NCBI GenBank assembly: GCA_040753215.1
Contig: JBFMEZ010000004.1
Span: 4,015 to 68,014 of the forward strand
Length of the DNA: 64,000 nt
DNA from: Candidatus Micrarchaeota archaeon
GTDB taxonomy: Archaea > Micrarchaeota > Micrarchaeia > Anstonellales > Bilamarchaeaceae
Direction: 5' to 3'
The first letter of the stretch is position 1, and every line of letters begins with the position of its first letter. Under the pieces are notes generated by a model that worked only from the letters and a program-made list of their open reading frames with translations, made no database searches and was not told the DNA's origin. Positions 5,752 through 62,169 of this stretch are shown here, in pieces. The position numbers and the translations under genes are program-made.

Positions 5752-6258
5752 TCACTCCTTCTTCTCTTCAGCCTTTTTCTCTTCCACAGGCTTCTTTGGC
5801 TTCCTCGGCTTTTTCGGCTTCGGGGGCTGTGCCTCAGGGGCAGCTTCCGGTTTCCCGCTTCCGGTTTCCGGTTTCGGCTCGTGCTTCTTCTCCTCCAGCT
5901 TCGGCTTCGGGAGCCTCTTCAGCACATTGTTGAGTATCTCGTTCGCGCCTCCCGCGTCCTCCACCGCTACCGAAGATGTGGGCACAGGAATCCCGACCGC
6001 CGCGCCCAACTCCTTTTTCGTGGGCACGTACACATAGGGTATCCCCTTCTCCTCGCAGAGCATCGGGATATGTATAACTATCTCCTCGGGCTCCACATCA
6101 GAGGCAATCACCACGAGCTTTGCGGCCTTCCTCTCAATGGATTTTGTAGTTTCATTAATCCCCTTGCGGATTCTTCCGGAGTCCTTTGCGACTGAAAGAG
6201 CTTCCACTACGCCGTCCACTACTTCCTTTGGTGTTTCAAATTTTACATAACTCGGCAT
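5752..6258 (-). CDS. rpl7ae: 50S ribosomal protein L7Ae with a Lys/Glu/Pro-rich C-terminal extension
   Basis: [29 protein letters not shown] and ELGAAVG. About 50 extra C-terminal residues, partly encoded by heptamer repeats. Confidence 0.97.
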
Positions 6259-6399
6259 ACATACACCTCTCTCCTTTTTACATCACAAACCTCGGCACAG
6301 CCTCGGTTTGTTCTGCCTTTGGGTTGCCTCGCTCGTGCCCCAGCACTCGCTCGGCGCAAAAAGGAGCCCAAAAACTTCGAGCATTTCATCTGTTCTATA

Positions 6400-6448
6400 C
6401 ACCTCATTTTTCATCTGCTCCGTTTCCGGAGCATCCACTTCATCGGTG
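6400..6448 (-). promoter_or_regulatory. Double kink-turn element in the rpl7ae 5' leader (probable L7Ae autoregulatory site)
   Basis: Minus strand reads CACC-GAU-GA...GA-UGCUCCG-GAAA-CGGAGCA-GAU-GA...GA-GGUG: two canonical stem / 3-nt bulge / tandem G.A motifs. Confidence 0.75.
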
Positions 6449-6482
6449 GTAGCTGTTTATATGCCGAAGAGGGTTTTTAAAA

Positions 6483-6866
6483 CTACTTCCCCAGCCCCTC
6501 ATTCGAAAGAATAAGCTCCTCCACTCTTTCTATAATCGTCCTCACAGTCCCAAGCGCCTTCTCCACCTTCTCCTTCCCAAGCTCCGCGTCAATCCCGGGT
6601 CTCACGTTCCCATAGAAATCTATGTTCCTCATCTCCCAGAGGAAATCCAAATCTTCCTTATGCTCCGAGAACACCCTCTTTGCGGTTTCCATCCTGTACT
6701 GGTGGGAAGCAACATCCTTCCCCTTCATGGTTTTATTGAAGGCGATAAGCGCGGACTCAAACGCCTGGTAGGCGAGCCCCGAAACCCCCGCCAGGTCCCC
6801 GTCCTCAAACAGCTTCTCCGCGGAAGCGAGCAGCGCCTTCGCCCTTTTCAGGTCCCTCCCAGCCAT
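6483..6866 (-). CDS. HEPN domain protein (toxin-like partner of MNT)
   Basis: Helical HEPN pattern LAYQAFE, SH and RNIDFY; overlaps the upstream MNT gene. Confidence 0.75.
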   Translation of the reverse strand: MAGRDLKRAKALLASAEKLFEDGDLAGVSGLAYQAFESALIAFNKTMKGKDVASHQYRMETAKRVFSEHKEDLDFLWEMRNIDFYGNVRPGIDAELGKEKVEKALGTVRTIIERVEELILSNEGLGK

Positions 6867-7687
6867 ATGGTTTCCCCTTCCTTCCCCAATTTCTCTTCTA
6901 TTTCTTCTATTCCCCTCTCCGCCTTAATCATCTTCTTTGGAACCACCTTCCCCTCATAGAGAAGGGATTCCAGCTCCCCCAGCGTAATCCTCAGCAATTC
7001 CTTATAATACTTCTTCGCCTCCCCACGCGCGCCCTTCGCCTTCTCCGCGTATTCCTTCGCCTTCCCCAGCCGGAACAGCGCATACGCCTTCGGGAAGCCC
7101 CGCAGCCCGGCCTTTATCCCGAACAGCTTTCCCATCCCCCTGAACACCACCCCATTCATCACCGCCTCCAGCGCCACGAAGTCCTCCATCCTCTCCACCT
7201 CCTCCCAGCCCTTCCTGTGCACCTCGAACCTGTACGGGAGCAAATCCGCGCCCTTCGGCGCCTCGCCCACCACCATCAGGTCTATATCGCTCTTCGCGGT
7301 CCCCAGCCCGTACGCATGGCTGCCGAACAGCACCACCGCCTCCGCCCCGGGCGCCCTTGAGAGGAAATACTCCACCGCATTCCTCGCCTCCGACCTCAGC
7401 CCCGCAATCCTCTCCTGCATGAACAGCTCCGCGAGGGCGAGCGCCATCCCCTTCCCCGCATCCGCCCTGAACAGTTTCCTTCTGCCACCTCTTGCCTGCC
7501 TTGCTGCCCCCACGCGAATGAGCGCCCCCAGCGCCGCTACCACGTTTGATTTCGACACCCTGCTCTCTCTCGCCAAATCCGATATGGAAAATGCGGCATA
7601 CGGCCTCTCCAGCAGCACCCTCAGCACCGAAATAGTAGTTTTTTTCGCAATCTGCTCTATTCGTATTTGTTCTTTTTTTAGGTTCAT
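6848..7687 (-). CDS. wHTH plus minimal nucleotidyltransferase (MNT) antitoxin-like protein
   Basis: N-terminal HTH (SISDLARESRVSKSNV) followed by LFGSHAYG...SDIDL, the Pol-beta-like NTase motif. Confidence 0.82.
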   Translation of the reverse strand: MNLKKEQIRIEQIAKKTTISVLRVLLERPYAAFSISDLARESRVSKSNVVAALGALIRVGAARQARGGRRKLFRADAGKGMALALAELFMQERIAGLRSEARNAVEYFLSRAPGAEAVVLFGSHAYGLGTAKSDIDLMVVGEAPKGADLLPYRFEVHRKGWEEVERMEDFVALEAVMNGVVFRGMGKLFGIKAGLRGFPKAYALFRLGKAKEYAEKAKGARGEAKKYYKELLRITLGELESLLYEGKVVPKKMIKAERGIEEIEEKLGKEGETIWLGGT

Positions 7688-7689
7688 AA

Positions 7690-7705
7690 GTTCTATTTTT
7701 AGAAC
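7690..7705. promoter_or_regulatory. Palindromic operator candidate for the HTH-MNT/HEPN operon
   Basis: GTTCTA-TTTT-TAGAAC lies between a TATA-like tract (7709-7717) and the start codon at 7687. Confidence 0.5.
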
Positions 7706-7789
7706 AAATATTTAAAAGCAGATGCCCTTTCTTACCCACCACATCCCGCCTTTCGGAATCCATTTAATATATGCTATCGATACCTTCCC

Positions 7790-8983: not shown

Positions 8984-9031
8984 ATTAGCAATCCATTTAA
9001 ACTCTAACTTATACTCTCTTCTGCGGTTTCC

Positions 9032-11189: not shown

Positions 11190-11897
11190 TTATGTGGCAG
11201 AGGCATCACGGCATGCCCTGAGACCTTCCAGATATATGCCGGCTTCCTGCGCCTTTCCATCGACAAATACAAATACTGCGCCCTTTCCCGCGTTCTTGGC
11301 CGCCATTTCTGCGCTATTTGCCCTGTCTATCAGCTCCTGCAGGTCTTCCGTCCCATCCAGTGCGGCCACCCCGATGCTTATGCTGATATGCAGGGCCTTC
11401 CCATCCTGGGACATTACTTCCGCTGCCTCTATTCTCCTCCTGATGCGTTCCGCCACGGTGCATGCATTCACCAGCGACTGGCTTTCCGGGAGCAGCACCA
11501 CGAACTCGTCTCCCCCAATCCTGCAAACAGAATCATACCCGCGCAGGCACCCTCTCACGGCTTCTACAAGCCCGCGCAGGACGTTGTCTCCTGTGTGCTC
11601 GCCGTATCTCTTGTTGAATGCCCCGAAATCGTCAACATCCACAAATATGATGCAGAAGATCTTGCGGGACCTCCTCTGCCTTGACAGCTCCTCCCCGAAC
11701 TTGTACTCCAGCCCCCTGCGGTTGAAAGCTCCGGTCACGGAGTCCCTCATCGCCGCATCCTCTGCCTTCTTCCTGAGAGCAGTCTCCCTCAGCAGCCTAT
11801 CTCCGTACTTTGTCAGCTTTTTCGTTAAGTCGTCCAGTTTAGCCCTGAGCTGGCGTACCGGTTCGCATCCGTCTCCGGTACAAATCTGCATCGCCAT
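11190..11897 (-). CDS. GGDEF-domain diguanylate cyclase-like protein with N-terminal coiled coil
   Basis: DSVTGAFNRR, DVDDF...N..YG...GDNVL, I-site RGYD, RIGGDEF, SISIGVA and AKNAGK. Confidence 0.93.
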   Translation of the reverse strand: MAMQICTGDGCEPVRQLRAKLDDLTKKLTKYGDRLLRETALRKKAEDAAMRDSVTGAFNRRGLEYKFGEELSRQRRSRKIFCIIFVDVDDFGAFNKRYGEHTGDNVLRGLVEAVRGCLRGYDSVCRIGGDEFVVLLPESQSLVNACTVAERIRRRIEAAEVMSQDGKALHISISIGVAALDGTEDLQELIDRANSAEMAAKNAGKGAVFVFVDGKAQEAGIYLEGLRACRDASAT

Positions 11898-22928: not shown

Positions 22929-23450
22929 TCACTTCTTCTTCGCAAAATCAAGTATGTTCGAAACGCCCTCGTTCCTCACGGTCAGCACGAGCACCGGGAA
23001 AGGCCTTCCGCATATGGAGCCCATCTCCATGCTGGTGCCCGGATACTCCACGACCGGGATTCGCGAGAGCTTCCCGTACTTCTCCACGTCCTCCCTGAGC
23101 CCCCTGGGCGCATTCCTCGCAACCAGCACCATCTTCGTTTTCCCCAGCAGGAGGTCCCTTATGCCGGTCTTGGAGCCGAACTCCACCTTGCCGCTCTCCA
23201 CCGCAAGCCTCAGCGCCGCGGAAAGGGGATTCTCCCTCTCCTTCAGGCTCTTCCTCTTGCGCACAACCTCCTTCTTCTCCCTCTTCGCCCTTCCCCGCTT
23301 CTTTGTTTCCTGAACCAAACCTCCGCCCTCTTTGCCCACTCCTGCTCTGGAGGTTTGGTTCACCGGTTTCCCGCCTCCGGTTTCCGGTGCCCCGGATTCC
23401 TCTTCAGGAAACTCAGCCGTTTCCGGCCTCTCTTCCTTTTTTTCTGCCAT
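22929..23450 (-). CDS. rpl30e: 50S ribosomal protein L30e with a long N-terminal extension containing repeat insertions
   Basis: LAVESGKVEFG, MEMGSICGRPF and EGVSNIL; about 75 extra N-terminal residues. Confidence 0.94.
   Translation of the reverse strand: MAEKKEERPETAEFPEEESGAPETGGGKPVNQTSRAGVGKEGGGLVQETKKRGRAKREKKEVVRKRKSLKERENPLSAALRLAVESGKVEFGSKTGIRDLLLGKTKMVLVARNAPRGLREDVEKYGKLSRIPVVEYPGTSMEMGSICGRPFPVLVLTVRNEGVSNILDFAKKK
23311..23362. repeat. Palindromic element family P, copy 1 (in frame inside rpl30e)
   Basis: TGAACCAAACCTCC...GGAGGTTTGGTTCA, perfect 14-bp inverted repeat; homologous to 49271-49323 and 62115-62169. Confidence 0.9.
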
Positions 23451-30578: not shown

Positions 30579-30591
30579 ACCCGGGCGGAGC

Positions 30592-30683
30592 AGCTTCCAG
30601 TTTCCGGTTTCCAGTCACACTGTGAAGCCGCTCAATCGCTTCCCTGCTTTCCCTGGCTTCACGGTGTGAGTCCCCAGTTTCCG
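30592..30683. repeat. Heptamer-flanked hairpin cassette upstream of rpoH
   Basis: TCACACTGTGAAGCC...GGCTTCACGGTGTGA inverted repeat (30615-30669), flanked by CCAGTTTCCGGTTTCCAG and CCCAGTTTCCG. Confidence 0.75.
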
Positions 30684-30800
30684 AAAGACGGATGCTGGGT
30701 GCTGGGAACAGATAACTCCACAGCTAGCAGTGGCATTCCATTTTAAAGGGATATGTTTAAAAAGGTTCTCTTCGCGCGCGTGCAATAAGTTTCTTAAACT

Positions 30801-32825: not shown

Positions 32826-34130
32826 ATGGCAAAGCTCAGGCGCGAACTGAACCTCACGACCGCGACCATTTTCGGCATCTCCATAATAGTGGGCGCCGGG
32901 ATATACGCGCTCATAGGCGCCGCAACCGCAATCGCGGGCACGGGCGTGTGGTTCTCCTTCCTCGTCGCCGCCTTTGTCGCGCTCCTCACGGGGCTGAGCT
33001 ACGCGGAGCTCTCCTCCATGTTCCCGCAGGCGGGTTCTTCGTTCACCTACGTCCTCAGGGGCCTGAACAGCCGCATGCTCGGCTTCATAACCGGCTGGCT
33101 CATCCTTTTTGAGGCGATGGTCGGCGCGGCGGCAATCGCAATGGCATTCGGGAACTATCTCGCTTCGATAATCGCGTTCCCGGTCATGGCCGCGGCGTTC
33201 CTGGTAATTCTCCTCTTTTCGGTAGTCAACCTGGTGGGGATAAGGGAATCCATCCTCCTCAACGATGTGATGTTCCTCCTTGAGGTGGGCGGCCTGCTCT
33301 TCGTAATCGCCGCCGGCTTCCTATTCGGCTCCGCAAATCCGGATCTGATGGATTTCCGGCTCACCCCCGCGCTTGCGGGCGCCGCCCTCGTATTCTTCGC
33401 GATGCTCGGCTTTGAGATGATTGCGAGCGAGAGCGAGGAGGCGAAGGATGCGAAGCACACGATTCCCGGCGCGATAATCCTCTCAATAATAATATGCACG
33501 TTCCTCTACGTCGCCTTCTCCATCGCCGCCCTGCTCCTGGTGGGGCCCGGGGTCCTCGGCGCCTCCACCGCACCCGTGAAGGATGTTGTATTCCCCCTCC
33601 TCGGCCAGTATGCATTCATCTTCTCCCTCATCGCCCTCGCCTCCACAGGCAACACGGTGCTCATCTGCCTCATAACCGCTTCCCGCCTTTCCTACGGCAT
33701 GGCGAAGAGCGACTCCCTCCCAAAATTCCTCTCCAGGATAAATGAAAGGTTCTGCACCCCGCACTTCGGGGTCCTTTTCGCCTTCGTGGTAGCCGCCTTA
33801 TTCCTTCTCATCGCCAACATGGTCATCATAGCCGAAGTAACGAATTTCGCGGCCCTCATCGCGTTCTTCCTCATAAACGTGAGTGTGATAAAGCTCAGGC
33901 TGGACGACCACCGCACGAAGCGGGCGTTCAGCGTGCCGTTCTCAGTCCCCGGCTTCCGGTTTCCAGTCCTCGGTTTAGACGTTCCTCCAATCCCAATCCC
34001 GGCGGTGCTGGGAGCCCTCGCTTCCCTCTTCCTGATTTTCTACCTCTCCATGGAGGCAATCCTCTACGGGGCCGGGCTCATCGTCCTTGGCGCAGCGGTG
34101 CACCTGCTGCACAGGAAACAAAAGAAGTAA
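32826..34130 (+). CDS. APC family amino acid permease
   Basis: IIVGAGIY, SYAELSSMFPQAG, GFE and SEE; about 12 TM helices; short heptamer-derived insert VPGFRFPVLG. Confidence 0.93.
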   Translation: MAKLRRELNLTTATIFGISIIVGAGIYALIGAATAIAGTGVWFSFLVAAFVALLTGLSYAELSSMFPQAGSSFTYVLRGLNSRMLGFITGWLILFEAMVGAAAIAMAFGNYLASIIAFPVMAAAFLVILLFSVVNLVGIRESILLNDVMFLLEVGGLLFVIAAGFLFGSANPDLMDFRLTPALAGAALVFFAMLGFEMIASESEEAKDAKHTIPGAIILSIIICTFLYVAFSIAALLLVGPGVLGASTAPVKDVVFPLLGQYAFIFSLIALASTGNTVLICLITASRLSYGMAKSDSLPKFLSRINERFCTPHFGVLFAFVVAALFLLIANMVIIAEVTNFAALIAFFLINVSVIKLRLDDHRTKRAFSVPFSVPGFRFPVLGLDVPPIPIPAVLGALASLFLIFYLSMEAILYGAGLIVLGAAVHLLHRKQKK

Positions 34131-36893: not shown

Positions 36894-37643
36894 ATGAAAC
36901 ATTCCCCCCAGCAAGAACTCTCCCCGGCAGTTCCCGGTTTCCAGTCCCCAGTTTCCCGTACCCAGCCCCCGGTCTCCCGTCTCCAGTCTCCTGTTTCCCG
37001 CAGGGCCGCGCTTTTCCTCTCCGCATTCCTTTCCGGCTGCGGCGCGGCGGCGGTGCAGGAAAATGCAACAACCACGTACAGCTCATCCGAAATGGTAATA
37101 ATCGCCCCAAACACCCTTCCGCAGAGGGAATTCCGCTCCTTCCTGAATACTTTGCGCAGCCGCTCGGGCAACTACCATGTGGAGCTTTCCGGGCTGGAAG
37201 GGGTGCTCGGCGACTGGACCTTCCGCAGGACCGATTACAGCGAGAGGGGGCGGTTCTCCTTCTACGACCTCTTCCTTACCAGCCAGCTGGTAAGGTCCGG
37301 GCAGCCGGACAGGGCGGAGATGCTGTACCAGGGCACCACGGAAAGCCCATACTTCAACATCCCGGCCGAGCACACCCCAAACGTAGGCAGCGACGTATTC
37401 GTTGTCGTGCTTCCAGGCAGGATTGCATTCAATTTCCGCAACCCGATTACAGGAGAGCCGGAGAGGAGGGTCTTCGAGTTTGATGAAAACGAAATCGGGC
37501 CCGGCTCCATTTTGGTCGCAGACTACGATGCCGAACAGAGCAAAATCCTCATCCATTTCGCTTCTGAGAGCAGGATTACGACCATCGTTTTCGATCTGAT
37601 GTCCGCGGAAATCTCCCTGCGCCACATAGCGCCGGAGGAATAA
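36894..37643 (+). CDS. Hypothetical exported protein with heptamer-repeat-encoded N-terminus
   Basis: TATA-like tract upstream; FLSGC lipobox-like segment preceded by repeat-derived SPVSR units. Confidence 0.6.
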   Translation: MKHSPQQELSPAVPGFQSPVSRTQPPVSRLQSPVSRRAALFLSAFLSGCGAAAVQENATTTYSSSEMVIIAPNTLPQREFRSFLNTLRSRSGNYHVELSGLEGVLGDWTFRRTDYSERGRFSFYDLFLTSQLVRSGQPDRAEMLYQGTTESPYFNIPAEHTPNVGSDVFVVVLPGRIAFNFRNPITGEPERRVFEFDENEIGPGSILVADYDAEQSKILIHFASESRITTIVFDLMSAEISLRHIAPEE

Positions 37644-37644: not shown

Positions 37645-37728
37645 CAGTTTCCAGTTACCAATTCTCAGTTTCCGAAACCGGAAACCGGCAACTGAAAACC
37701 GGAAACCGAAAACTGGGAACCGGCAACT
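37645..37728. repeat. Inverted heptamer repeat array between convergent genes (possible terminator)
   Basis: CAGTTTCCAGTTACC...CAGTTTCC followed by GAAACCG GAAACCG GCAACTG AAAACCG GAAACCG AAAACTG GGAACCG GCAACTG. Confidence 0.8.
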
Positions 37729-37732
37729 GCTT

Positions 37733-37805: not shown

Positions 37806-37806
37806 A

Positions 37807-37988
37807 CCAAGAGGAAGGGGGAAGGCGTTCCCCCAATCGGCTTCCTGTTTCCAGCTTCCGGAAACCCTAAACGGGATGGCGGAATCCCGCAGGATTCTGC
37901 CATTTATCTCCGCAGAGATACGGAACCGGGAACTCTCTGACCCCCCTTCCACTTCACTTTGCCACTCTTTGCCCGCACTTCTTACGCA
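37807..37988. repeat. Dispersed element family C, copy interrupted by heptamer and hairpin cassettes
   Basis: 37807-37834 and 37940-37988 match the two halves of 43941-44037; the middle holds hairpins shared with 44623-44666, 58643-58671 and 60969-60992. Confidence 0.8.
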
Positions 37989-43940: not shown

Positions 43941-44037
43941 TCCAAGAGGAAGGGGGAACGCCTTCCCCCCTCTCTTTAGGGTAATCATACCCCCCTTCCA
44001 CTTCTCTTTATCACTCTTCGCTCGTACTTCTTGCGCA
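43941..44037. repeat. Dispersed element family C, most complete copy
   Basis: CCAAGAGGAAGGGGGAACGCCTTCCCCCCTCTCTTTAGGGTAATCATACCCCCCTTCCACTTC...; other copies at 37807-37988 and 46584-46633 (inverted). Confidence 0.8.
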
Positions 44038-44094
44038 TTGACTTTTCCAACAATATGGTTAGTATTAAATTCCCTCCCAAACCATCTCTCTACC

Positions 44095-44979: not shown

Positions 44980-45017
44980 CAGTTCCCGGTTTCCTGTTTC
45001 CGGTTTCCGGTTGTGGC

Positions 45018-45472
45018 CAGGGTGTTGCAAATTTAAAACCGATGCCAATTAGTTGTTGTCTCCAGGTCTTGCAGTTGTCTCCATGTCTTGCATGGTCTCC
45101 AGGTCTTGCAGTTGTCTCCAGGTCTTGCAGTTGTCTCCAGGTCTTGCATGGTCTCCATGTCTTGCATGGTCTTCAGGTCTTGCATGGTCTCCAGGTCTTG
45201 CAGTTGTCTCCAGGTCTTGCATGGTCTTCGGGTCTTGTGTGACTTTCAGGACCCTCAGGACAACTCAAGACCTCACCAGACTCCAAGACCCCAAGACTAG
45301 GAGACCACAGAGATTATTAAAGCCGATGCCCATCAGTGGTTGTCTCCAAGTCTTGCATGGTCTTCGGGTCTTGTGTGACTTTCAGGACCCTCAGGACAAC
45401 TCAAGACCTCACCAGACTCCAAGACCTGGAGACCACAGGGATTATGCCGCATCCGTAATCTGCAACAGGCTA
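45018..45472 (+). mobile_element. MITE-like element M, copy 1 (terminal IRs, 18/19-bp tandem core, internal duplication)
   Basis: Ends CAGGGTGTTGCAAATT and AATCTGCAACAGGCT; core of GTCTCCAGGTCTTGCATG / GTCTCCAGGTCTTGCAGTT units; about 75 bp exactly duplicated (45216-45290 vs 45352-45426); no transposase. Confidence 0.8.
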
Positions 45473-46574: not shown

Positions 46575-46583
46575 TGATAATGC

Positions 46584-46657
46584 GGGGGGTTATGATTACC
46601 CTAAAGAGAGGGGGGCGCTCTCCCTTCCTCTTGTGGAAACGGGAAACTGAAAACTGG
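46584..46657. repeat. Partial inverted family C copy followed by heptamer repeats
   Basis: GGGGGGTTATGATTACCCTAAAGAGAGGGGGG...CCCTTCCTCTTG is the reverse complement of about 43943-43995; then GGAAACG GGAAACT GAAAACT. Confidence 0.75.
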
Positions 46658-46665
46658 TGACTGAT

Positions 46666-49232: not shown

Positions 49233-49270
49233 GCACGAGACTGGGAACCGGAAACCGGTAACTCAAACCG

Positions 49271-49323
49271 TGAACCAGACCTCCGCTCTTCCTGCCCTTC
49301 CGTTGCTCTGGAGGTTTGGTTCA
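49271..49323. repeat. Palindromic element family P, copy 2
   Basis: TGAACCAGACCTCC...GGAGGTTTGGTTCA, preceded by heptamers GGAACCG GAAACCG. Confidence 0.88.
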
Positions 49324-49394
49324 GTGAAGCCATGGGAAAAAAGGGAAACGAAAGGGCGGCTTCACGGTTTGACAGGAAACCACCGAGGTATGCA

Positions 49395-50195: not shown

Positions 50196-53100
50196 CCAGG
50201 TGCCTCGGGCGGTCCGGGTTTATGCCTGCGCCCACGCTCGCATGGTAGGCGAGGAGCTGGAGCGGGGCAACCAACGCGAAGGGGCAGAAGAGCGGGTCGG
50301 TTTTCGGGATGGCTATCGAAACATCGGATTCCTCCGCGATTTCCCTGCTATCGGTGAGGGAGATTACGAAGCCGCCCCTTGCCCTCACTTCTTTTATGTT
50401 CCCGAGCATCTTGTATACGCTCTCGTCATCCGGGGCGAGGGCGATGACCGGGACCCCCTCCTCAATCAGGGAAAGGGGGCCGTGCTTCAGCTCCCCCCCG
50501 GGATACGCTTCCGCGTGCCTGTAGGAGATTTCCTTGAATTTGAGGGCCCCCTCCATCGCAATCGGGAGCGAGAGGCCCCTGCCGAGGAAGAAGAGGTTCT
50601 GCCTTCCCTTCAGCTTTTCAGCCATTCTCCTTATTTCTTCCTCCTTGCCGAGCGAGGAGCTTATCAGCCCGGGGATTCCGGAGAAGTCCCAGCCGGGGAA
50701 AAGGAGCTTGTATATGACTGCCAGCTGGGAGGTGAAGGTCTTTGTGGCCGCAACCGAGACCTCAGGCCCGGAATTGAGGTAGACTACCTCGTCCGCGATG
50801 CGGGTGATGGAGGAGCCGACCACATTTGTGAGGGCGAGTATCCTTGCCCCTTCCTTCTTTGCGTATTCAAGCGCCCTCATCGTGTCTGCGGTTTCCCCGG
50901 ACTGGGAGATTGCGATTGCCAGGGTTTCGCTGTCGGGGTTTGCGACGAACGGGTATTCCGAGGCGATTATCGCATCGCAGCCCTTCCCGAGGCATTTCTG
51001 GGAGAGGTGCCTGAACACCAAAGCCGCATGGTGGGAGGTGCCGCAGGCGGTTATGTGGAGTTTCTTGAACCGGGACAGGAGGGAGTGGGCCCTGGAAACA
51101 TCGGTTGCGAGCGAATCAGTGACGCAATGCTTTTGTTCGTATATCTCCTTGAGCATGAAATGGGGGCGGCCGCCCTTTTCCGCCATCTCCGCGGACCAGT
51201 TTACTGTCATCGGCTTCTTCTGTATTTCGTTTCCTTCCAAAGAATAGAATTTTATGGACTCCGGCCTCAGGATTGCGGCTTCAAGCTCGCCGAGCGGCAC
51301 GAAGGTTTTCGTATGCGCGAGCATCGCGGTCATGTCCGAGGCGGCGAAGCTCCCGTCTTTCCCGAATCCGATTACAAGCGGGCTGTTCTTCCTCGCCGCG
51401 TAGAGTTTTCTCTCGCCCTGCGAGAGGAGGGCGATTGCGAACGAGCCTTTCAGCTTTTTCAGGGAGGAAAGGAATGCGGAGAAGGTGTCTTTTCCGTCCT
51501 TCTTCTCTTCCTCCGCGAGATGGGCGAAGACTTCCGAATCGGTTTCGGACGAGAACCTGTGGCCCTTCTTTTTCAGCTCTTCGCGCAGTTCCCGGTAATT
51601 TTCTATCACCCCATTATGCACTATTGCGATTTTCCCTGTGCAGTCCGTGTGCGGGTGGGCATTCGCCATGGAGGGTGCGCCGTGGGTTGCCCAGCGGGAA
51701 TTGTGGCTCACTAAACCGTTTGCAATAAAGTTCTCTGTTCCTGGAACGCTGATATCGTACACTTTCTCGGTATCGCTTGCAAACTTCCTTATTTCGCTAA
51801 TTGGCTGGGAGATAACGTCGCTCTCTAAAAATCTGGAAAGCGCCCGGAATGCCTCCGAATCCTCTTCCAGCTCATCCATAAACTGCAGAACGCCCATTTC
51901 TGTAAAGAAAGCGTCCTTTGGCCGCAAAGAGCGGCTCTTAATCTCAAAAACCGAAGAAATCTCGCCTTTGGTGAGAGGAACCGACTTGTATGAGAAGGAA
52001 ATGCCTGGTCTTAGGGAAGACAGGATTGTTTTTGCTTTTTCCTGTTTTTCACAGCTGGTAAAACCTATGGACTTCATGAAAGCAGAGATGCCGTTGAAAT
52101 TGCTGATTTGCAGCCTGTAGGATGGACCCCATTTGGTAGGATTAACCGAGAATGATGCAACTATCCCAAACCTAAGAAGTAGGATTTGTACGGTACGGAT
52201 TATTTGCTGGTTTCTCATACTTATCATTATCTGTCGCGAACGCATGCCGCAAGCAGCTTCGGCATCAAATAAGCCGCGCAAAAGTCCTGCGATTTCATTT
52301 TTACTGGTTTTGCCCAAGAATACTGGAATCGATTTCTTCTCCCAAGGCATGCAAATCTCCGGAAAATTTTCCCTTAGCCAGTCGCAAACAAATTTGCTGT
52401 TCATCTCCAGCATGTAGGCATTTGCTTCAGGGAGTTTAACTATTCTGCTCTTAAGGTTAAATAGGCTCTTGGCTAACGCCGCATAACTTTCAAGAATATC
52501 TTTCCTTGCATCCTTGAAGCGGATGCATCTCTTTTTCACATTTCCATCCCCTATGAGATAGCCGAGGAACTGCAAAAGCTCCATGCTTGTTTTTTCTGGA
52601 AGGGTTATGTCCTTACCGTGTATTGAATAAACAGGCTTAAACCTGCCTCTGCTTATTCCTGTGGATGAACAGATCTTTTCAAGAAAAGCTTCCTCCAGGT
52701 TTCTGTCCATATTTATGAAGTGTGCCAATATGGATTCATCTAACCCTGATGAAGCGGCAAACTCCCTGCGGGCCATCCCATTCTTCTTCAGAAACGCCTT
52801 AAAATCGTCCACAACATCCCGGCCGTAGGAATAGTAGCGCTTTGCGGGGACACTTCTGAGCGGCTGCAGTGAGCCATCTAAATCTATTCTCTTTGCGCAT
52901 ACCATAAGGTCGCCGGTCTTGAGGTCCTTTGCTTTCTTATCAATTATTTTTTGATCCTCAAAAACAAACATCCGGTGCTCTCCAGTGCAAATGATTGAAT
53001 TGACCGGAGTCTTTATCTCATAAAGTTCTGCAGGGCTCCTGTGCTCCAAAAAGCTGCAATTCTGCTTCTTGAAATGGAGCGAACCGAAATCTAAGGTGCA

Positions 53101-53394
53101 GACCTCATCGTTTTCTGCGATGTCCTTTATTTTGCATACCCTTCCGTCAGATAACTGCACGTATGTATCTGGATGGAGGCAGTGGCCTATCGCCGTTATT
53201 CCATCAAGCGAAGTGAATTGCTGGGATGCGGATACTTCATCCACCATCCCCTTGTCCTTGCGTATGGTTATTCCCTGCGGGGTATCAACTGCAATGCCTA
53301 CAGAATCATATCCGCGGTATTCTAAGGTCCGGAGGCCGTTATTTATTATTTCGGAAGCCTTCCTGTTTCCCACATAGCCGATTATCCCGCACAT
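50173..53394 (-). CDS. glmS: Glutamine-fructose-6-phosphate aminotransferase with an intein
   Basis: MCGIIG, LEYRGYDS, RWATHG, HNG, SQSGETADT, GALKFKE, ELKHGP and LAKSVTVE. Confidence 0.97.
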   Translation of the reverse strand: MCGIIGYVGNRKASEIINNGLRTLEYRGYDSVGIAVDTPQGITIRKDKGMVDEVSASQQFTSLDGITAIGHCLHPDTYVQLSDGRVCKIKDIAENDEVCTLDFGSLHFKKQNCSFLEHRSPAELYEIKTPVNSIICTGEHRMFVFEDQKIIDKKAKDLKTGDLMVCAKRIDLDGSLQPLRSVPAKRYYSYGRDVVDDFKAFLKKNGMARREFAASSGLDESILAHFINMDRNLEEAFLEKICSSTGISRGRFKPVYSIHGKDITLPEKTSMELLQFLGYLIGDGNVKKRCIRFKDARKDILESYAALAKSLFNLKSRIVKLPEANAYMLEMNSKFVCDWLRENFPEICMPWEKKSIPVFLGKTSKNEIAGLLRGLFDAEAACGMRSRQIMISMRNQQIIRTVQILLLRFGIVASFSVNPTKWGPSYRLQISNFNGISAFMKSIGFTSCEKQEKAKTILSSLRPGISFSYKSVPLTKGEISSVFEIKSRSLRPKDAFFTEMGVLQFMDELEEDSEAFRALSRFLESDVISQPISEIRKFASDTEKVYDISVPGTENFIANGLVSHNSRWATHGAPSMANAHPHTDCTGKIAIVHNGVIENYRELREELKKKGHRFSSETDSEVFAHLAEEEKKDGKDTFSAFLSSLKKLKGSFAIALLSQGERKLYAARKNSPLVIGFGKDGSFAASDMTAMLAHTKTFVPLGELEAAILRPESIKFYSLEGNEIQKKPMTVNWSAEMAEKGGRPHFMLKEIYEQKHCVTDSLATDVSRAHSLLSRFKKLHITACGTSHHAALVFRHLSQKCLGKGCDAIIASEYPFVANPDSETLAIAISQSGETADTMRALEYAKKEGARILALTNVVGSSITRIADEVVYLNSGPEVSVAATKTFTSQLAVIYKLLFPGWDFSGIPGLISSSLGKEEEIRRMAEKLKGRQNLFFLGRGLSLPIAMEGALKFKEISYRHAEAYPGGELKHGPLSLIEEGVPVIALAPDDESVYKMLGNIKEVRARGGFVISLTDSREIAEESDVSIAIPKTDPLFCPFALVAPLQLLAYHASVGAGINPDRPRHLAKSVTVE
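51700..53181 (-). mobile_element. Intein (494 aa) with LAGLIDADG homing endonuclease and HTH insert
   Basis: AIGH|CLHPDT ... TGEHRMF ... FLGYLIGDG ... LRGLFDAE ... VYDISV..TENFIANGLVSHN|SRWATHG; lower GC than the host gene. Confidence 0.95.
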
Positions 53395-55130: not shown

Positions 55131-55475
55131 TTACTCCGGCTTGGCCAATTTCCGCAGTTTTGCCTCAAGCTGCGGCAAATCGGCTTTCACAACATCCCAG
55201 ACTATTTCATAATCAATGATGTCATACGCATGGATTATCCTGTTTCTCATCCCTATTATTTTTCTCCATTCTATTTCCTTATGCCGATTCCTGAACGATT
55301 CGCTGAGCTTTGAGGATGCTTCCCCGATTATCTCAAGATTCCTCACAACCGCATCCCGCAGCATTTCGTTCTCCACGAATTCTTCTTTTTTCACATCCTT
55401 ACAATATCTTTTGATCCGCCCCAACGCACCGAGAATATCGTCGACATACACTAGGTCATCCCTTTCCGCCGCCAT
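55131..55475 (-). CDS. HepT-like HEPN ribonuclease toxin (DUF86)
   Basis: AVVRNLEIIGEA and GMRNRIIHAY (Rx4HxY). Confidence 0.93.
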   Translation of the reverse strand: MAAERDDLVYVDDILGALGRIKRYCKDVKKEEFVENEMLRDAVVRNLEIIGEASSKLSESFRNRHKEIEWRKIIGMRNRIIHAYDIIDYEIVWDVVKADLPQLEAKLRKLAKPE

Positions 55476-55756
55476 CAGAATACCACCGCCATGTCTTTTT
55501 TGATATGATTCAGAATGCGCGGCTTCATTGAGCGGAGCAGAACGACGTCGACGTGTTTTCCGGTCTTATCCTCAAGCTCCTGCTCCACGCCAACAAGGTC
55601 GAGGAGCGAGAACTTTCCTTTCGGCGGCTCTATCGCTATGTCTATGTCATTGTACTTCGGCTCATTTCTTGCAAAGCTGCCGAACAAATATGCTTTTTTT
55701 ATGCCGTGCCCGGCAAGCACCTGTTTTATTCTCTGGATTATTTCCTCGCGCTTCAT
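55475..55756 (-). CDS. MntA-like minimal nucleotidyltransferase antitoxin
   Basis: LFGSFAR...NDIDI and VDVV; coupled to DUF86. Confidence 0.92.
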   Translation of the reverse strand: MKREEIIQRIKQVLAGHGIKKAYLFGSFARNEPKYNDIDIAIEPPKGKFSLLDLVGVEQELEDKTGKHVDVVLLRSMKPRILNHIKKDMAVVF

Positions 55757-55810
55757 GGCTTAGGATAGGCGCAAAGATGATTAAAATACTTTTCTTTAGG
55801 TGCCACAACC

Positions 55811-56131
55811 GAGCCTGTTGCAAATTACGGATGCGGCATAATCTCTGTGGTCTCCTGGTCTTGGGGGTCTTGGAGTCTGGTGAACCTCCACGGCGTGAAG
55901 TCTTGAGTTGTCCTGAGGGTCCTGAAAGTCACACAAGACCTGAAGACCATGCAAGACCTGAAGACCATGCAAGACCTGAAGACCATGCAAGACCTGAAGA
56001 CCATGCAAGACCTGGAGACCATGCAAGACCTGGAGACCATGCAAGACCTGGAGACCATGCAAGACCTGGAGACCATGCAAGACCTGGTGACAACAGCTAA
56101 CGGGCATCGGTTTTAAATTTGCAACACCCCA
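55811..56131 (-). mobile_element. MITE-like element M, copy 2 (inverted relative to copy 1)
   Basis: Ends GAGCCTGTTGCAAATT and AATTTGCAACACCC; the unique parts are the reverse complement of 45018-45472. Confidence 0.82.
55934..56087 (+). repeat. 18-bp tandem repeat, about 8.5 units
   Basis: CAAGACCTGAAGACCATG x4, then CAAGACCTGGAGACCATG x4 and a partial unit; no spacers. Confidence 0.95.
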
Positions 56132-58531: not shown

Positions 58532-58532
58532 G

Positions 58533-60410
58533 ATGCCCGCTCCCTGCCACTCTTCCGGTTCCCAGTCCCCGATTTCAACATCGCTTCGCGATGACTCCAT
58601 GTTGCCTCGGCAACAACTGGCGAAGTTCTGCGGAACTTCACCATGGCAGAATCCTTCCGGGATTCCGCCATCCGGTTCTCCAGGCACAAAAAAGCTCAGG
58701 ATTGCCCTCGCGGGGAACGCGAACGTTGGCAAGAGCGCACTCTTCAACCATCTCACCGGCCTCTCGCAGCATGTCGCCAACTGGCCGGGAAAGACCGTGG
58801 AGATGGCGGAAGGCAAGCTGCATTTCCACGATTATGAGATGGATGTGATAGACCTGCCGGGCATCTATTCCTTCTCCACATTCTCCATAGAGGAGCGCGT
58901 GAGCGAGGAATACATCACAAAGGAAAAGCCCGACGTGGTAATCAATGTAATAGACAGCGCCGCGCTCGAGCGCAACCTCTTTTTCACGCTACAGCTCCTT
59001 GAGCTCGGCGTTCCGGTCGTAATCGCCCTGAACCAGTCCGATGTCGCCCGGAAGAGGGGAATAACAATAGACGAAAAGAAGCTCTCCAGGCTCCTCAGGG
59101 TGCCCGTCGTCCCCACCGTAGCCACAAAGGGGATTGGGGTCCAGGAGCTCATCTGGCGCTGCATAGAGGCCGCAGGCAAGAGTGGCAAACGCAGGTCGAA
59201 AAGAACCCCTTCGGTTAAGCCCCCTTCCATAGCGCTCAGCAGCAGGAGATATGCAACCGCGGGCAGCATCGCATCCCGGGTCCAGATATCCACCCCGCAG
59301 AAGGGAGGGCTTGCTGAAAGGATAGACGACCTCACCACCCACCGCTTTTTCGGCTACCTCATAATGCTCATCGTGCTCGGCGGGGTATTCTACTCCATAT
59401 TCGCTTTCGGCGGGTTCCTCTCCTCGGAAATCGGGAACTTCTTCAATGCATTCCGCCCTCCCCCTTCCGCCCTCACGGAAAACCTCGTCTGGGAGGGTCT
59501 TGTAGGAGGGTTCGTTGCAGGGCTCACGCTCGTGCTCCCCTACGTCCTCCCTTTCTACTTCCTCCTCTCGCTCCTTGAAGACACGGGCTACATCACCCGC
59601 GTCGCCTACCTCCTTGACGGAATCGCCCACCGCATAGGCTTCCATGGGAAAGCCATAATCCCCCTCCTCCTCGGATACGGCTGCAACGTCCCCGCCTGCA
59701 TAGGGTGCAGGATGATGGAATACGAGAGGGACCGCCTCATCACCGCGTTCGCGGTAACGCTCGTCCCCTGCACCGCCCGCACGGTTGTCATACTTGCCCT
59801 GGTCGGCGCCTTCCTCGGAATCCAGTGGGCAGCCGCAATCTACCTTCTCAACCTCATAGTGGTGGCAGCCCTTGCAAAAATAGCCTTCAGAATCCTCCCC
59901 GGCGAGCCGGTCGGCCTCATAATGGAGATGCCGCGCTACAGGGTCCCCTCCCTTTCCGTTGCCGCGAAGCAGACGTTCCTCCGCACGAAATCCCTGCTCA
60001 CAATAGTGTTCCCGTATTATATCGCAGGCGGGCTCGTGCTAGCCCTCCTGCAGCTCGCGGGAATCCTCAGTGCGCTCAACGGCCTCTTCTCACCCCTAAC
60101 CTCTGGCTGGCTCGGGCTGCCCGCATTCGCGGGCACCCTCCTCCTCTTTGGGGTGGTGCGCAAGGAGCTCGTTGTGGTCCTGCCCGCCGTCCTCTACGGG
60201 ACGGCAGACCTCTCCTCTCTCTTTACCCCGGTGCAGATGCTCGTCCTCACAATAGTGACGATATTCTACATTCCCTGCCTCGCAACAATAGAAACGCTCA
60301 GGAGGGAATTCGGATGGAAGAAGGCGCTTGCCATCTCCGCTTTTGAGATAATTTTCGCAATCCTGCTTGGCGGAATCGCCTACCGCATCCTAACCGCATT
60401 CCTCCCGTAA
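58533..60410 (+). CDS. feoB: Ferrous iron transporter FeoB with repeat-derived N-terminal insert
   Basis: GNANVGKS, NWPGKTVE, DLPGIYS, LEDTGY, GYGCNVP, PCTAR, MEMP and YIPCLAT. Confidence 0.95.
   Translation: MPAPCHSSGSQSPISTSLRDDSMLPRQQLAKFCGTSPWQNPSGIPPSGSPGTKKLRIALAGNANVGKSALFNHLTGLSQHVANWPGKTVEMAEGKLHFHDYEMDVIDLPGIYSFSTFSIEERVSEEYITKEKPDVVINVIDSAALERNLFFTLQLLELGVPVVIALNQSDVARKRGITIDEKKLSRLLRVPVVPTVATKGIGVQELIWRCIEAAGKSGKRRSKRTPSVKPPSIALSSRRYATAGSIASRVQISTPQKGGLAERIDDLTTHRFFGYLIMLIVLGGVFYSIFAFGGFLSSEIGNFFNAFRPPPSALTENLVWEGLVGGFVAGLTLVLPYVLPFYFLLSLLEDTGYITRVAYLLDGIAHRIGFHGKAIIPLLLGYGCNVPACIGCRMMEYERDRLITAFAVTLVPCTARTVVILALVGAFLGIQWAAAIYLLNLIVVAALAKIAFRILPGEPVGLIMEMPRYRVPSLSVAAKQTFLRTKSLLTIVFPYYIAGGLVLALLQLAGILSALNGLFSPLTSGWLGLPAFAGTLLLFGVVRKELVVVLPAVLYGTADLSSLFTPVQMLVLTIVTIFYIPCLATIETLRREFGWKKALAISAFEIIFAILLGGIAYRILTAFLP
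58551..58683. repeat. Heptamer-flanked string of four mini-hairpins, in frame in feoB
   Basis: CATCGC-TTC-GCGATG, TGTTGCC-TC-GGCAACA, GAAGTTC-TGCG-GAACTTC and ATGGCAGAATCC...GGATTCCGCCAT. Confidence 0.85.
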
Positions 60411-60801
60411 GTTCATGGACAACGCCCCTCTTCCCTGCAATCCTTATTCCCGAACGGCCTGTCGCTTCTCCTGTATGCCGCGCGCAGGTCCGGGCCCGCC
60501 AGCTCGTCCTGCCCCCACGGCCTGTTCACAAACTCCCTCGCAGACCGCGGATGCAGCGCAATACCCCGGGGAATCCCGTACCTCTCCGAAATGCTCGGCC
60601 CGCCCTTGCCGCCCGCATTCCTGTTCAGCCCCACTATTATATTCAATCCGTGCACCATTGTTATCACCCGGGGAAATAGGCGGTTATTCCCATATTTATA
60701 TATTCTTGATAAAAATATTCCATTAAGAATATGCCCAAAGCGGCGCTTCCCGCGCCGGCTCCGCAAAAGATTAAAAACACCTTGCCGTCTATTTAGTTCT
60801 A

Positions 60802-60896
60802 CCCGCCGTAGCTCAACGGTAGAGCGATCGGCTGTAGCTTGATTCTCTACGAAAGTAGAAACCGATAGGTTGCTGGTTCAAATCCGGCCGGCGGGA
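60802..60896 (+). tRNA. tRNA-Tyr(GTA) with a 23-nt intron at position 37/38 (60838-60860)
   Basis: CCCGCCG...CGGCGGG A acceptor stem and ATCGG/CCGAT anticodon stem; CTGT pairs with intron GTAG to give a BHB-type junction. Confidence 0.95.
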
Positions 60897-60931
60897 TATT
60901 TCCTGCATACTATTTGGAGTGCTGGCTCATT

Positions 60932-61009
60932 TTCTGGGTTTCCGGTTTCCGCATCGCTTCGCGATGGCTGGCAGAATCTGCGGATTCCGCCATCGGGTTT
61001 CCTGTTCCG
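60932..61009. repeat. Heptamer-flanked hairpin cassette downstream of tRNA-Tyr
   Basis: GGTTTCCGGTTTCC, CATCGCTTCGCGATG, TGGCAGAATC-TGCG-GATTCCGCCA and GGTTTCC; same modules as in feoB. Confidence 0.85.
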
Positions 61010-61055
61010 TCTTCCTTATGCACCTATTATATACATATATAGAGAACCCACATCC

Positions 61056-62078
61056 ATGGCTTCGCGCAGGAGGATTCTGCTCTATTTCCTCGCACTGCTC
61101 ATTTCCGCCATCGCAATCTTCATTTCAGCCCGCCCCGCAGAGAATCCATCCTCATCAATCCCTGAAGGCTGCGGCCCCCTCCGCATTTACATAATAAACG
61201 TGAGCCAGGCGGATTCCATCCTCATTATAACCCCGTCCAACAAAACCATCCTGATAGATGCCGGCTCGGAAATGAAGCCGAACTCCTCCACAAATGCAGT
61301 CTCCTTCCTCCAGCGCATGAACATTTCCAGAATAGATTACCTCATCGCCTCCCATTACCATGAGGACCATATAGGAGGGATGCCCGCAGTCTTTTCCAAT
61401 TTTGAAGTAGCAAAGGTCTATGATAACGGGAACTGCGGCAACTATTCCAGCGGGGCGCAGAGGGATTTCCAGCTCTACGCTTCAAGATACGATTTCATCC
61501 ATGTCGCACAGGACACCACCCTGCAAATTGATTCCTGCCTCTCCGAATCAAAGCTCATCGCCCCTTATTCCACGCCCGGAAGATGCTTCAGCTCCAGCCG
61601 CGATTTCTCAAATGAGAATGAGAATTCCATCATCCTTTACATGGTTTATGGAAACACCTCCTTCCTGCTCACAGGCGACTGCGAAGAAAACTGCGAGCAG
61701 GAACTAATCCAAAAAGGGGTTCGCGCAGACTTCCTAAAGGTGGGCCACCACGGGAGCGCAACCTCCTCAGGCCCGGAATTCCTTGCTGCGGTAGATGCGC
61801 AATATTATGCAATTCCCACAGACAGGGCAAGAAGCGTAACCGATGGCTATTTCCACCCGAGGCAAATCCCGCTCGCAAACATTTACGCCCGCGGAATAAG
61901 CCCGGTTAATCTCTTCCGCACGGATTTGAACGGAAACATCGCAATAATCTCCGATGGCACCGCAATCTCCGCCTCCTCGGATGCCTCCGCTTCCCTGTGC
62001 GGTTTGTTCAGCGGCTATTCGTCCGCGAACGTTTCTTCCTACGCCCCAATCCCGGCCCTTGCGCAGGCCTGCGGTTAG
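61056..62078 (+). CDS. Membrane-anchored MBL-fold metallohydrolase (ComEC/Rec2-like)
   Basis: VSQADS, LIDAG, SHYHEDHIGG, NENS, LLTGD, KVGHHGS, HP and RTDLNG. Confidence 0.9.
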   Translation: MASRRRILLYFLALLISAIAIFISARPAENPSSSIPEGCGPLRIYIINVSQADSILIITPSNKTILIDAGSEMKPNSSTNAVSFLQRMNISRIDYLIASHYHEDHIGGMPAVFSNFEVAKVYDNGNCGNYSSGAQRDFQLYASRYDFIHVAQDTTLQIDSCLSESKLIAPYSTPGRCFSSSRDFSNENENSIILYMVYGNTSFLLTGDCEENCEQELIQKGVRADFLKVGHHGSATSSGPEFLAAVDAQYYAIPTDRARSVTDGYFHPRQIPLANIYARGISPVNLFRTDLNGNIAIISDGTAISASSDASASLCGLFSGYSSANVSSYAPIPALAQACG

Positions 62079-62114
62079 CCATCCAGTTCCCGGTTTTCAG
62101 TTTCCGGTTTCCGG

Positions 62115-62169
62115 TCAAACCAAACCTCCGCTCTTCGTGCCCCATTTCGGCTCTGGAGGTTTGGTTTGA
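62115..62169. repeat. Palindromic element family P, copy 3
   Basis: TCAAACCAAACCTCC...GGAGGTTTGGTTTGA, 15-bp inverted repeat, preceded by a heptamer array at 62083-62114. Confidence 0.9.

Follow-up and report, generated by a model that had tools for sequence, protein, structure and literature searches.

The window, a stretch of 64,000 nucleotides from a Candidatus Micrarchaeota archaeon (positions 4015-68014 of contig C4 in genome G000), carries tandem heptamer tracts and short hairpins. The unit of the tracts is GGAAAC followed by one free base, with the consensus CNGTTTC on the opposite strand. The tracts are insertions, keep the reading frame in genes, are associated with tRNA genes and are nested with hairpins. 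Probably they come from small non-coding modules that were inserted across the whole genome in a burst specific to this lineage, the solo tracts being read as cargo-less relatives of a cassette that carries a PF05635 gene. An earlier description, made from the letters of the window alone (below, the sequence-only reading), had proposed composite heptamer-plus-hairpin elements that enter housekeeping proteins in frame. The strongest patterns are additional to it and lie mostly outside the window: the tie to tRNA genes, the tRNA and rRNA introns formed from modules, and the link to the PF05635 cassette.

Genome G000 consists of 32 contigs with a total size of 1.17 Mb and a G+C content of 55%, and is 91% complete. 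The comparison genome, G007, belongs to the same genus and is a 1.03-Mb contig of the same G+C content (55%).

Heptamer tracts

An array was called where three units together mismatched at no more than 3 of their 18 fixed bases. The genome contains 245 such arrays at 196 loci; two fifth-order Markov sequences, used as controls, contain 7 and 10, so that the excess over background on which the sequence-only reading depended is present. A stricter, unit-based detector finds 166 arrays (1, 4 and 4 in controls). Genome-wide repeat discovery with Tandem Repeats Finder (TRF) gives 161 rows of period 7 against 52 of period 6 and 59 of period 8, about 112 of the 161 being of the GGAAAC-N type. The exact three-unit pattern is found 22 times in G000 and 0-2 times per genome in 40 relatives; its reversed control pattern is found 0 times. 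G007 has 11 arrays, which is about background level, and is without period-7 excess. Within the window GGTTTCC occurs 31 times (11.2 ± 3.1 in 100 shuffles, largest 20) and CAGTTTC 16 times (6.8 ± 2.8, largest 13). Heptamer runs had been named at 13 places in the window, and all 13 are seen by eye. The three-unit detector returns 12 arrays there and covers 11 of the 13 places; the runs at 58551 and 60932, shorter or degenerate, do not pass.

Tracts are of 3-8 units, rarely more (peak 4 units, mostly 3-5, with the stricter detector). Variability is concentrated in the free base, the six fixed bases varying far less. The free base is identical in 23% of 752 neighbouring unit pairs (30% expected), and the whole unit string is shared with another array in only 7 of 166 arrays; tracts therefore did not arise by fresh slippage, nor were they copied recently from a few masters. 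Twelve contiguous inverted pairs of the form (CNGTTTC)n(GAAACNG)n, with a gap of at most 2 nt, form hairpins. Eighteen pairs of arrays in the same orientation are 14-248 nt apart, several with small hairpins in between. Just over half of the arrays (127/245) are in the roughly 15% of the DNA outside the rough gene calls. Inside open reading frames (ORFs) the GAAAC sense, which is hydrophilic, is found 84 times and the GTTTC sense 34 times.

Closeness of arrays to stop codons was rejected as a targeting rule, since it is explained by the very short spacers of the genome (for example, at the C25:77446 site). Targeting of T-runs was also rejected, the empty sites of G007 being without oligo-T. 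Single-linkage clustering of all repeats was abandoned because it lumped the modules in two big groups.

Across a wider collection of genome contigs, CNGTTTC x3 is present in at least 123 stretches; the 80 matches listed are all bacterial and mostly single. Several matches in one genome are found in few genomes among the matches listed (Desulfonema magnum, 3; a Gemmatimonadales metagenome-assembled genome, 3; Wenzhouxiangellaceae), and no clear second host appears among them. The open-access literature yielded no report of heptamer arrays from Micrarchaeota or DPANN.

Insertion sites

Collinear anchors on both sides in G007 are available for 143 of the 245 arrays. At 97 of the anchored sites G000 is longer by at least 14 nt, at 24 the genomes agree within ±13 nt, and at 22 G000 is shorter by at least 14 nt. 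Base-level alignments against G007 show clean empty sites, mostly without a seed unit. Inspection by eye of about 30 aligned empty sites of G007 revealed no target-site duplication. The sites in window genes are empty in 5-7 relatives. These empty sites, together with the 97 longer ones, support the reading of the elements as insertions specific to the lineage. The sites in the window are as follows, mini-hairpin families being numbered H1 to H8 and net gains being given relative to G007.

5841..5875, plus strand: L7Ae tail array, five units in the C-terminal K/E/P tail (gene 5752-6258, minus strand).
23303..23391, plus strand: L30e insert, tract 23364-23391 and remnant 23303-23310, split by a 52-nt H1 at 23311-23362 (gene 22929-23450, minus strand).
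30591..30684, plus strand: tract upstream of rpoH, tract 30591-30618, nested 54-nt H6 at 30615-30668, remnant; intergenic (rpoH 30330-30578, minus strand); net +87 nt.
33943..33978, plus strand: APC permease insert, 36 nt of in-frame heptamers in a loop (gene 32826-34130).
36928..36997, plus strand: array in a lipoprotein-type signal peptide, about 10 degenerate units in the n-region (ORF 36894-37643), LSGC lipobox downstream.
37645..37729, no strand assigned: inverted array pair by tRNA-Asn, (CNGTTTC)n 37645-37672 and (GAAACNG)n 37674-37729; hairpin, 2 nt past the tRNA-Asn 3' end.
37732-37806, minus strand: tRNA-Asn, heptamer tracts on both flanks.
37807..37936, no strand assigned: tRNA-Asn 5' flank, H7 37807-37834, tract 37838-37866, H3 about 37875-37904, H8 37904-37921, tract remnant; net +84 nt.
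44980..45014, plus strand: array 3' of DUF63, five units from the first base after the stop (gene 44038-44979).
46583..46663, minus strand: upstream of the IF-2B-family gene (ribose-1,5-bisphosphate isomerase-like), H7-type hairpin 46583-46633 and array 46636-46663, directly 5' of the gene start; net +74 nt, site empty in G007.
49237..49376, minus strand: 3' side of the AMP-phosphorylase-like gene, array 49237-49264 4 nt past the stop, H1 variant about 49271-49323, H6b about 49322-49363.
58551..58687, plus strand: FeoB insert, degenerate tract 58551-58576, H2 58579-58593, H4 58601-58614, H5 58619-58642, H3 58643-58671, remnant 58672-58687.
60936..61015, plus strand: site before the metallo-beta-lactamase-fold gene, two heptamer units, H2 60952-60966, H3 60967-60994, remnant; intergenic, 40 nt past the tRNA at 60802-60896.
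61056 to 62078, plus strand: metallo-beta-lactamase-fold gene, true start M63 at 61056, stop 62078, downstream of the 60936..61015 site.
62084..62180, plus strand: site after the metallo-beta-lactamase-fold gene, array 62084-62118, H1 variant 62116-62166, remnant; intergenic, before ORF 62235-63323; net +99 nt.

The open frame at 60870 was rejected as an artefact; it overlaps the tRNA, and the true start is M63.

Copies in protein genes

Six in-frame protein insertions had been proposed. Four are borne out by ortholog alignments (L30e, APC permease, the 36894 ORF and FeoB), and two are not (L7Ae and DUF63). Peptide segments are added, as had been suggested, at termini and in one transporter loop: in L30e, FeoB, the signal peptide and the APC permease.

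The L30e insert lies in frame in the N-terminal extension of the protein, adds 25 aa and is absent in five same-genus orthologs; the net gain is +75 nt relative to G003 and G005 and +78 nt relative to G007. The five orthologs start with M(E/A)EK.E.PETAEFPEEE and continue with ..KKGRAKREKKEVVRKRKS. Both blocks are kept in G000 around the insert, which is bounded by conserved MAEKKEERPETAEFPEEE upstream and KKRGRAKREKK downstream. In the APC permease, VPGFRFPVLGLDVPP stands in place of a three-residue segment that is variable among orthologs (for example, IAN). The alignment has a clean 12-aa gap in 7 of 7 aligned orthologs, 5 of them of the same genus (+12 aa). The n-region of the 36894 ORF is longer by 10 aa than in three orthologs (G006 and G003 among them), and upstream of the hydrophobic core no in-frame start other than M1 is available. 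In FeoB (gene 58533-60410) the insert is in frame after codon 6 and adds about 33 aa; G006 shares the start at the feoA stop. The G1 motif KKLRIALAGN is preceded by 52 aa in G000 and by 19 in G006, and G004 starts with MKAIRVALAGN. The long N-terminus is present in only one close ortholog. The nearest internal in-frame start, M23, would still leave 30 element-encoded residues. A composite of the FeoB type is present at 5 further places of the genome.

The L7Ae array is in frame. Every one of the six same-genus orthologs found has a K/E/P tail, as do many from the order; the tail of G000 is not longer (net -12 nt relative to G007). About 35 nt are read as heptamers where relatives have codons of the KPAEAKPAE type. 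The same tail in relatives thus speaks against an insertion; judged from the alignment, the array is at most a replacement, and the tail is ancestral rather than made by the element. At DUF63 the stop codon occupies 44977-44979 and the array starts directly behind it, at 44980; with a complete Pfam match (2-267 of 269), this places the array outside the ORF.

Insert lengths (net, relative to G007) are multiples of three at 15 of 21 ORF-internal sites (p = 4e-4), as would be expected of insertions that spare the frame. The corresponding values are 9/9 near ORF 3' ends, 16/43 in intergenic DNA and 11/20 near called 5' ends, the last figure being affected by some over-extended ORF calls. Because inserts in ORFs are mostly multiples of three and intergenic inserts are not, the in-gene inserts are probably translated. 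Frame-keeping, the bias to non-coding DNA and the sense bias together look like insertion at random or semi-random places with selection acting afterwards, and they argue for in-gene copies being read by the ribosome.

Association with tRNA and rRNA genes

An array is inside or within 60 nt of 27 of the 46 tRNA genes, against 4.8 ± 2.1 (largest 14) in 1000 random intergenic placements. The sense of the arrays is GAAAC in 8/8 cases on the 5' flank and GTTTC in 17/19 cases on the 3' flank. Between flank arrays and the mature ends of the tRNA there are 0-4 nt, the tRNA-Asn of the window being an example. A flanking tract is found at 1 of 47 G007 tRNAs predicted by ARAGORN, a few of these calls being spurious giant-intron ones.

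Introns at position 37/38 formed from heptamer modules are present in five tRNAs, all outside the window:
C13:15746-15855; C13:104325-104441; C3:15961-16078; C5:32532-32693; C25:110310-110517.
These introns are tracts alone (35, 41 and 42 nt) or tracts with 2 or 4 mini-hairpins (90 and 136 nt), and inverted tracts form their outer helix. The G007 orthologs of tRNA-Arg-CCT, Arg-TCT and Thr-CGT are intron-free. The minimum-energy fold of Arg-TCT has the order helix, short bulge, 4-bp helix, bulge, helix; the other tRNA folds are less clear. The predicted intron folds are compatible with a bulge-helix-bulge layout, without being proof of it. A splicing endonuclease (PF01974) is encoded: a 388-aa ORF has two matched stretches (C13:80524-80997), and a separate 163-aa ORF has one. 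A multi-unit tRNA-intron endonuclease has been reported for archaea of the archaeal Richmond Mine acidophilic nanoorganism (ARMAN) type.

In comparison with G007, the 23S rRNA (C1:27787-30738) has gained four small inserts in a stretch of about 300 nt. One, which is about 48 nt long and contains three heptamer units but no ORF, is absent in G007. Against the Rfam model, the 16S rRNA (C31:3938-5620) has about 200 nt more, an insert of about 82 nt among them; the 16S inserts are without heptamers.

The tRNA at window 60802-60896 has a 23-nt intron, which is shared by G007. It was called by ARAGORN as tRNA-Arg(acg) at 60812-60896 and, with intron search, as tRNA-Tyr(gta) at 60802-60896.

Mini-hairpins

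Hairpin modules are 14-55 nt long, and they recur, as had been stated. Copies of at least 80% of module length number 6 for H1, 6 for H2, 11 for H3, 5 for H4, 16 for H5, 4 for H6, 9 for H6b, 8 for H7 and 6 for H8. Copies within 30 nt of a heptamer pair are 8/11 for H3, 4/4 for H6, 6/9 for H6b, 2/6 for H1, 2/6 for H2, 1/5 for H4 and 1/6 for H8. Only 1.6% of the genome is that close to a heptamer pair, and 18 of the 24 copies of H3, H6 and H6b are there. A nested layout is seen in the window at 23303-23391, 30591-30684, 58551-58687 and 60936-61015. The proposed composite element thus resembles hairpins nested in pre-existing tracts more than a single unit.

Family H7 (CCAAGAGGAAGGGGG..CCCCCTTCTCTTTAGGGTAATCATA) is found in the window at 37807-37834, 43942-44004 and 46583-46633, beside tRNA genes and gene starts.

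PF05635 cassette and search for a mobilising enzyme

Three genes for four-helix-bundle proteins of family PF05635 are present in G000 (59.6-67.8 bits, cut-off 33.8), none of them in the window. Each is beside tracts, and two of the three are beside tRNAs. The latter two belong to near-identical cassettes of about 1.2 kb (C13 and C22) at the 3' flanks of tRNA-Ile(TAT) and tRNA-Val(CAC), with one tract at the tRNA junction and a second about 90-150 nt past the gene. The third gene (C25) has no adjoining tRNA and lies, at C25:20074-20382, between inverted arrays of a different, 7/18-base repeat; the window has members of that family at 45019-45471 and 55809-56129. Among C22, C13 and G007 the cassette is 77-88% alike, yet stands beside different tRNAs. 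The G007 copy (88% alike) is at tRNA-Ile(GAT), the only G007 tRNA with a tract. A tract past the four-helix-bundle gene is conserved in G000, G006 and G007. Solo tRNA-proximal cassette ends are found at 5 further G000 loci, and one internally deleted copy is at C3:2585-2784.

PF05635 occurs in 13 of 41 related genomes, including 6 of the 7 with exact heptamer hits (hypergeometric p about 0.002, or about 0.006 without G000; calculated by hand, the relatives not being independent). The 33 kb around the PF05635 genes of 11 relatives contain 12 arrays; control loci totalling 256 kb contain 6. The only solved relative of the PF05635 protein detectable by sequence, PDB entry 2rld, is labelled 'uncharacterized protein' and has five chains in the crystal. 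No link between PF05635 and heptamers was found in the open-access literature.

No mobilising enzyme had been seen in the window, and the Pfam annotation of its 58 ORFs likewise contains no transposase. HUH nucleases, four-helix-bundle proteins and reverse transcriptases (RTs) had been named as kinds of gene that might accompany the arrays. The first kind was not detected, the second is represented by the three PF05635 genes by tracts, and the third by one split gene. The latter is a group-II-like RT (C3:55200-56800, locus L271) with an Rfam RT-16 RNA motif upstream. A heptamer array interrupts it between profile positions 120 and 125, and owing to a C9 run its two parts are not in the same frame. 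Just downstream follow another array and a tRNA-Leu.

The 18-base-unit repeat at window 45019-45471 and 55809-56129 is present there as inverted copies with a tandem unit of GTCTCCAGGTCTTGCATG / CAAGACCTGGAGACCATG in 9-10 copies. The copies are flanked by a GTTGCAAATTTAAAACCGATGCC-like motif.

Proposed origin and alternatives

On the proposed account the basic module would be a tract of 3-8 GGAAAC-N units, often an inverted pair folding as a hairpin. Mini-hairpin families of 14-55 nt would have landed later inside or beside tracts, which gives the composite look. The source would be a cassette of about 1.2 kb with a gene of PF05635 (23S-rRNA-IVS-protein / Avd-like), of which the heptamer tract is a conserved part. 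As the cassette stands at different tRNAs across species and has truncated and internally deleted derivatives, solo tracts are read as its cargo-less relatives, as MITEs (miniature transposable elements with inverted repeats) stand to a parent element. The mechanism that would move or copy the tracts leaves the target unduplicated; since the copies are not accounted for by any transposase, it is one that we infer. Copies would survive only where harmless: in intergenic spacers and at tRNA gene ends; at the canonical tRNA intron site and in the 23S insert, where RNA processing can remove them; and, without loss of frame, in protein loops, disordered tails, N-terminal extensions and the n-regions of signal peptides, where they would be translated.

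Several observations weigh against this account. Anchored sites are no longer than in G007 in 46 of 143 cases, some tracts replace sequence instead of adding to it (L7Ae, lipoprotein), and gene calls across G000 come from the author's own rough model. Hairpins of H5 (0/16) and H7 (0/8) are never within 30 nt of a heptamer pair. H7, unlike the heptamers, is common at tRNA flanks in G007 too and is thus older. The C13 and C22 cassettes have tracts only on the tRNA side and past the gene, without symmetric arms. The link between cassette and tract is a correlation among related, non-independent genomes: G013 is heptamer-positive without PF05635, and seven PF05635-positive genomes have no exact hit. 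An archaeal four-helix-bundle profile gave no match at E <= 0.01 in six-frame ORFs within 300 nt of 123 of the bacterial CNGTTTC x3 loci, a result that says little, the flanks being short and the profile narrow. In G000 no enzyme with a copy number matching the arrays was found, PF01797 (Y1/HUH) had 0 matches at E <= 0.01, and no DDE_Tnp_1 was found; as the genome is 91% complete, a mobilising gene may be missing. TnpB-like ORFs are only four, dissimilar and without shared repeat ends. Their loci were rejected as a source, having no shared ends and no border tracts except one array near C13:84075. The RT was rejected as an evident source, since its gene is itself interrupted by an array and the upstream RNA is without a GGAAAC template.

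The tracts might instead be ordinary microsatellites, grown in place by slippage from GGAAAC seeds, with the hairpins as unrelated neighbours. Units are indeed tandem and variable in number, some tracts occupy coding DNA of low complexity and high purine content that is itself similar to the unit (as in the L7Ae tail and at the L30e site, where relatives have GAAGGAAGGGAAGGAAGCC), and relatives have a few weak arrays. Such growth is nevertheless improbable: neighbouring units resemble each other less than expected by chance (23% against 30%), the free base is much more variable than the fixed ones, the empty sites of G007 are mostly seedless, contiguous inverted pairs cannot arise in this way, G007 has no period-7 excess at the same G+C, and neither the orientation rule nor the 0-4-nt spacing at tRNA ends suits growth in place. 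The same orientation and spacing, with six fixed bases and one free base as in a recognition site, favour selected cis-elements (protein-binding arrays or RNA helices) as opposed to selfish DNA, of which cis-elements the copies in proteins would be by-products. A GGAAAC in the 5' leader would pair with GUUUCC in the 3' trailer and aid termination, pre-tRNA/rRNA processing or the insulation of genes with high expression. The outer helix of tRNA introns, the length peak at 4 units (mostly 3-5) and the tract kept past the four-helix-bundle gene in G000, G006 and G007 agree with this. It is unlikely all the same, as tracts are absent at 46 of 47 predicted G007 tRNAs (some calls being spurious) and at the window genes of same-genus relatives, a 5' flank tract is present in only 8 of 46 tRNAs, many copies are in coding DNA, where such a role is unlikely, and frame-keeping suggests tolerance rather than use.

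The copies in protein genes could also be archaeal bulge-helix-bulge introns, cut from mRNA by the tRNA splicing endonuclease and leaving no extra peptide. The same modules do serve as tRNA introns at 37/38, a multi-unit endonuclease gene is encoded, and inverted tracts and hairpins could offer the helices. Spliced introns, however, need no rule of three such as is seen inside ORFs (15/21) and at 3' ends (9/9) against intergenic DNA (16/43), and the APC and lipoprotein inserts are of a single orientation with no evident helix; this explanation is very improbable. Rather doubtful is a more specific proposal, in which the GGAAAC-N tracts are recognition arrays for the PF05635 (Avd-like) protein and, with a host polymerase or RT, hairpin DNA is inserted beside tRNA genes, hairpins and rRNA helices. 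The five chains of 2rld and the tracts of mostly 3-5 units are the points behind it. If it were true, bacterial 23S intervening sequences, bacterial heptamer repeats and some archaeal tRNA/rRNA introns would be one class of mobile element. The burst of insertion modules remains the probable explanation. In annotation, tracts inflate or distort gene calls in small metagenome-derived genomes.

Other genes of the window

The window ORFs annotated with Pfam (n = 58) include a typical archaeal core.
Core genes: split RpoA and RpoB, RpoH, L7Ae-S28e-L24e, L30e-NusA-S12-S7-EF2, aRF1.
Other genes: AMP phosphorylase-like, IF-2B-family, DtxR/FeoA-FeoB, GlmS with intein.
50173-53394, minus strand: GlmS-like gene with GATase and two SIS domains; intein with a LAGLIDADG homing-endonuclease domain.
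11190-11897, minus strand: GGDEF-domain protein, 235 aa, diguanylate-cyclase type, 129 bits.
6483-7687 and 55131-55756, minus strand: two toxin-antitoxin-type gene pairs, HEPN with MNT-type nucleotidyltransferase.
The GGDEF domain is uncommon among archaea.

Comparison with known systems

Rickettsia palindromic elements (RPEs) are described as elements of about 150 bp in ten families, with 44 gene integrations in R. conorii (PMC10969869). They are, like the G000 modules, small non-autonomous palindromic repeats, in frame in unrelated housekeeping genes, translated, and with no mobilising enzyme known. The likeness to RPEs supposed in the sequence-only reading extends to in-frame insertion in unrelated protein genes, by hairpins and tracts in L30e and FeoB and by tracts only in the APC permease and the lipoprotein. 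The likeness is one of behaviour: the G000 host is archaeal, the modules are tracts of 21-60 nt and hairpins of 14-55 nt (3-10 times shorter) with a 7-base unit, about half are intergenic, the tie to tRNA genes is strong, and tRNA introns are also formed. The modules would be an archaeal counterpart to the Rickettsia elements, selfish mini-repeats that write peptide segments into essential proteins, with the states before and after seen in sister species.

Cyanobacterial STRR repeats (named for short sequences repeated in tandem) are, like the G000 tracts, dispersed tandem arrays of heptamers, mostly intergenic. Vioque reportedly described in 1997 STRR arrays in the RNase P RNA gene. The tracts of G000 are likewise dispersed 7-base tandem arrays; they differ from STRR in the unit GGAAAC-N with its free position, the inverted pairs, the nested hairpins and the in-frame coding copies. 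They are not STRR proper, having the unit CNGTTTC and a host with archaeal RNA polymerase, L7Ae and aRF1.

Repetitive extragenic palindromic (REP) sequences, bacterial interspersed mosaic elements (BIMEs) and MITEs are, like the modules, short, structured, multi-copy and mostly extragenic, with shortened derivatives beside a longer gene-bearing relative. In contrast to REP with its REP-associated tyrosine transposase (RAYT), no Y1 HUH gene (RAYT/TnpA_IS200-like) was found in G000 by the PF01797 search. In contrast to MITEs, there is no DDE transposase, no target-site duplication by eye (about 30 empty sites) and no terminal inverted repeats of MITE type.

For 23S rRNA intervening sequences a 28-bp terminal stem and excision by RNase III are described, with a transposition remnant or a mobile element as hypotheses of origin (PMC4990558). 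The same paper describes S23p proteins as being without known function (PMC4990558). The S23p ORF of these sequences and the cassette ORF of G000 belong to one family, PF05635, and origin and mobility are unexplained in both. The ORF cassettes of G000 are at tRNA 3' flanks (C13, C22), not inside a 23S helix, the third (C25) being between inverted arrays. The tRNA and 23S copies carry no ORF, and the enzyme to remove them would be the splicing endonuclease of archaea instead of RNase III. Cargo-less tracts number in the hundreds, some of them in proteins. The PF05635 cassette is thereby a testable suspect for dispersed heptamer repeats and for rRNA intervening sequences. With the bulge-helix-bulge tRNA introns of archaea, G000 shares the 37/38 insertion site and the encoded splicing endonuclease, and modules that turn into tRNA or rRNA introns would bear on the origin of archaeal introns.

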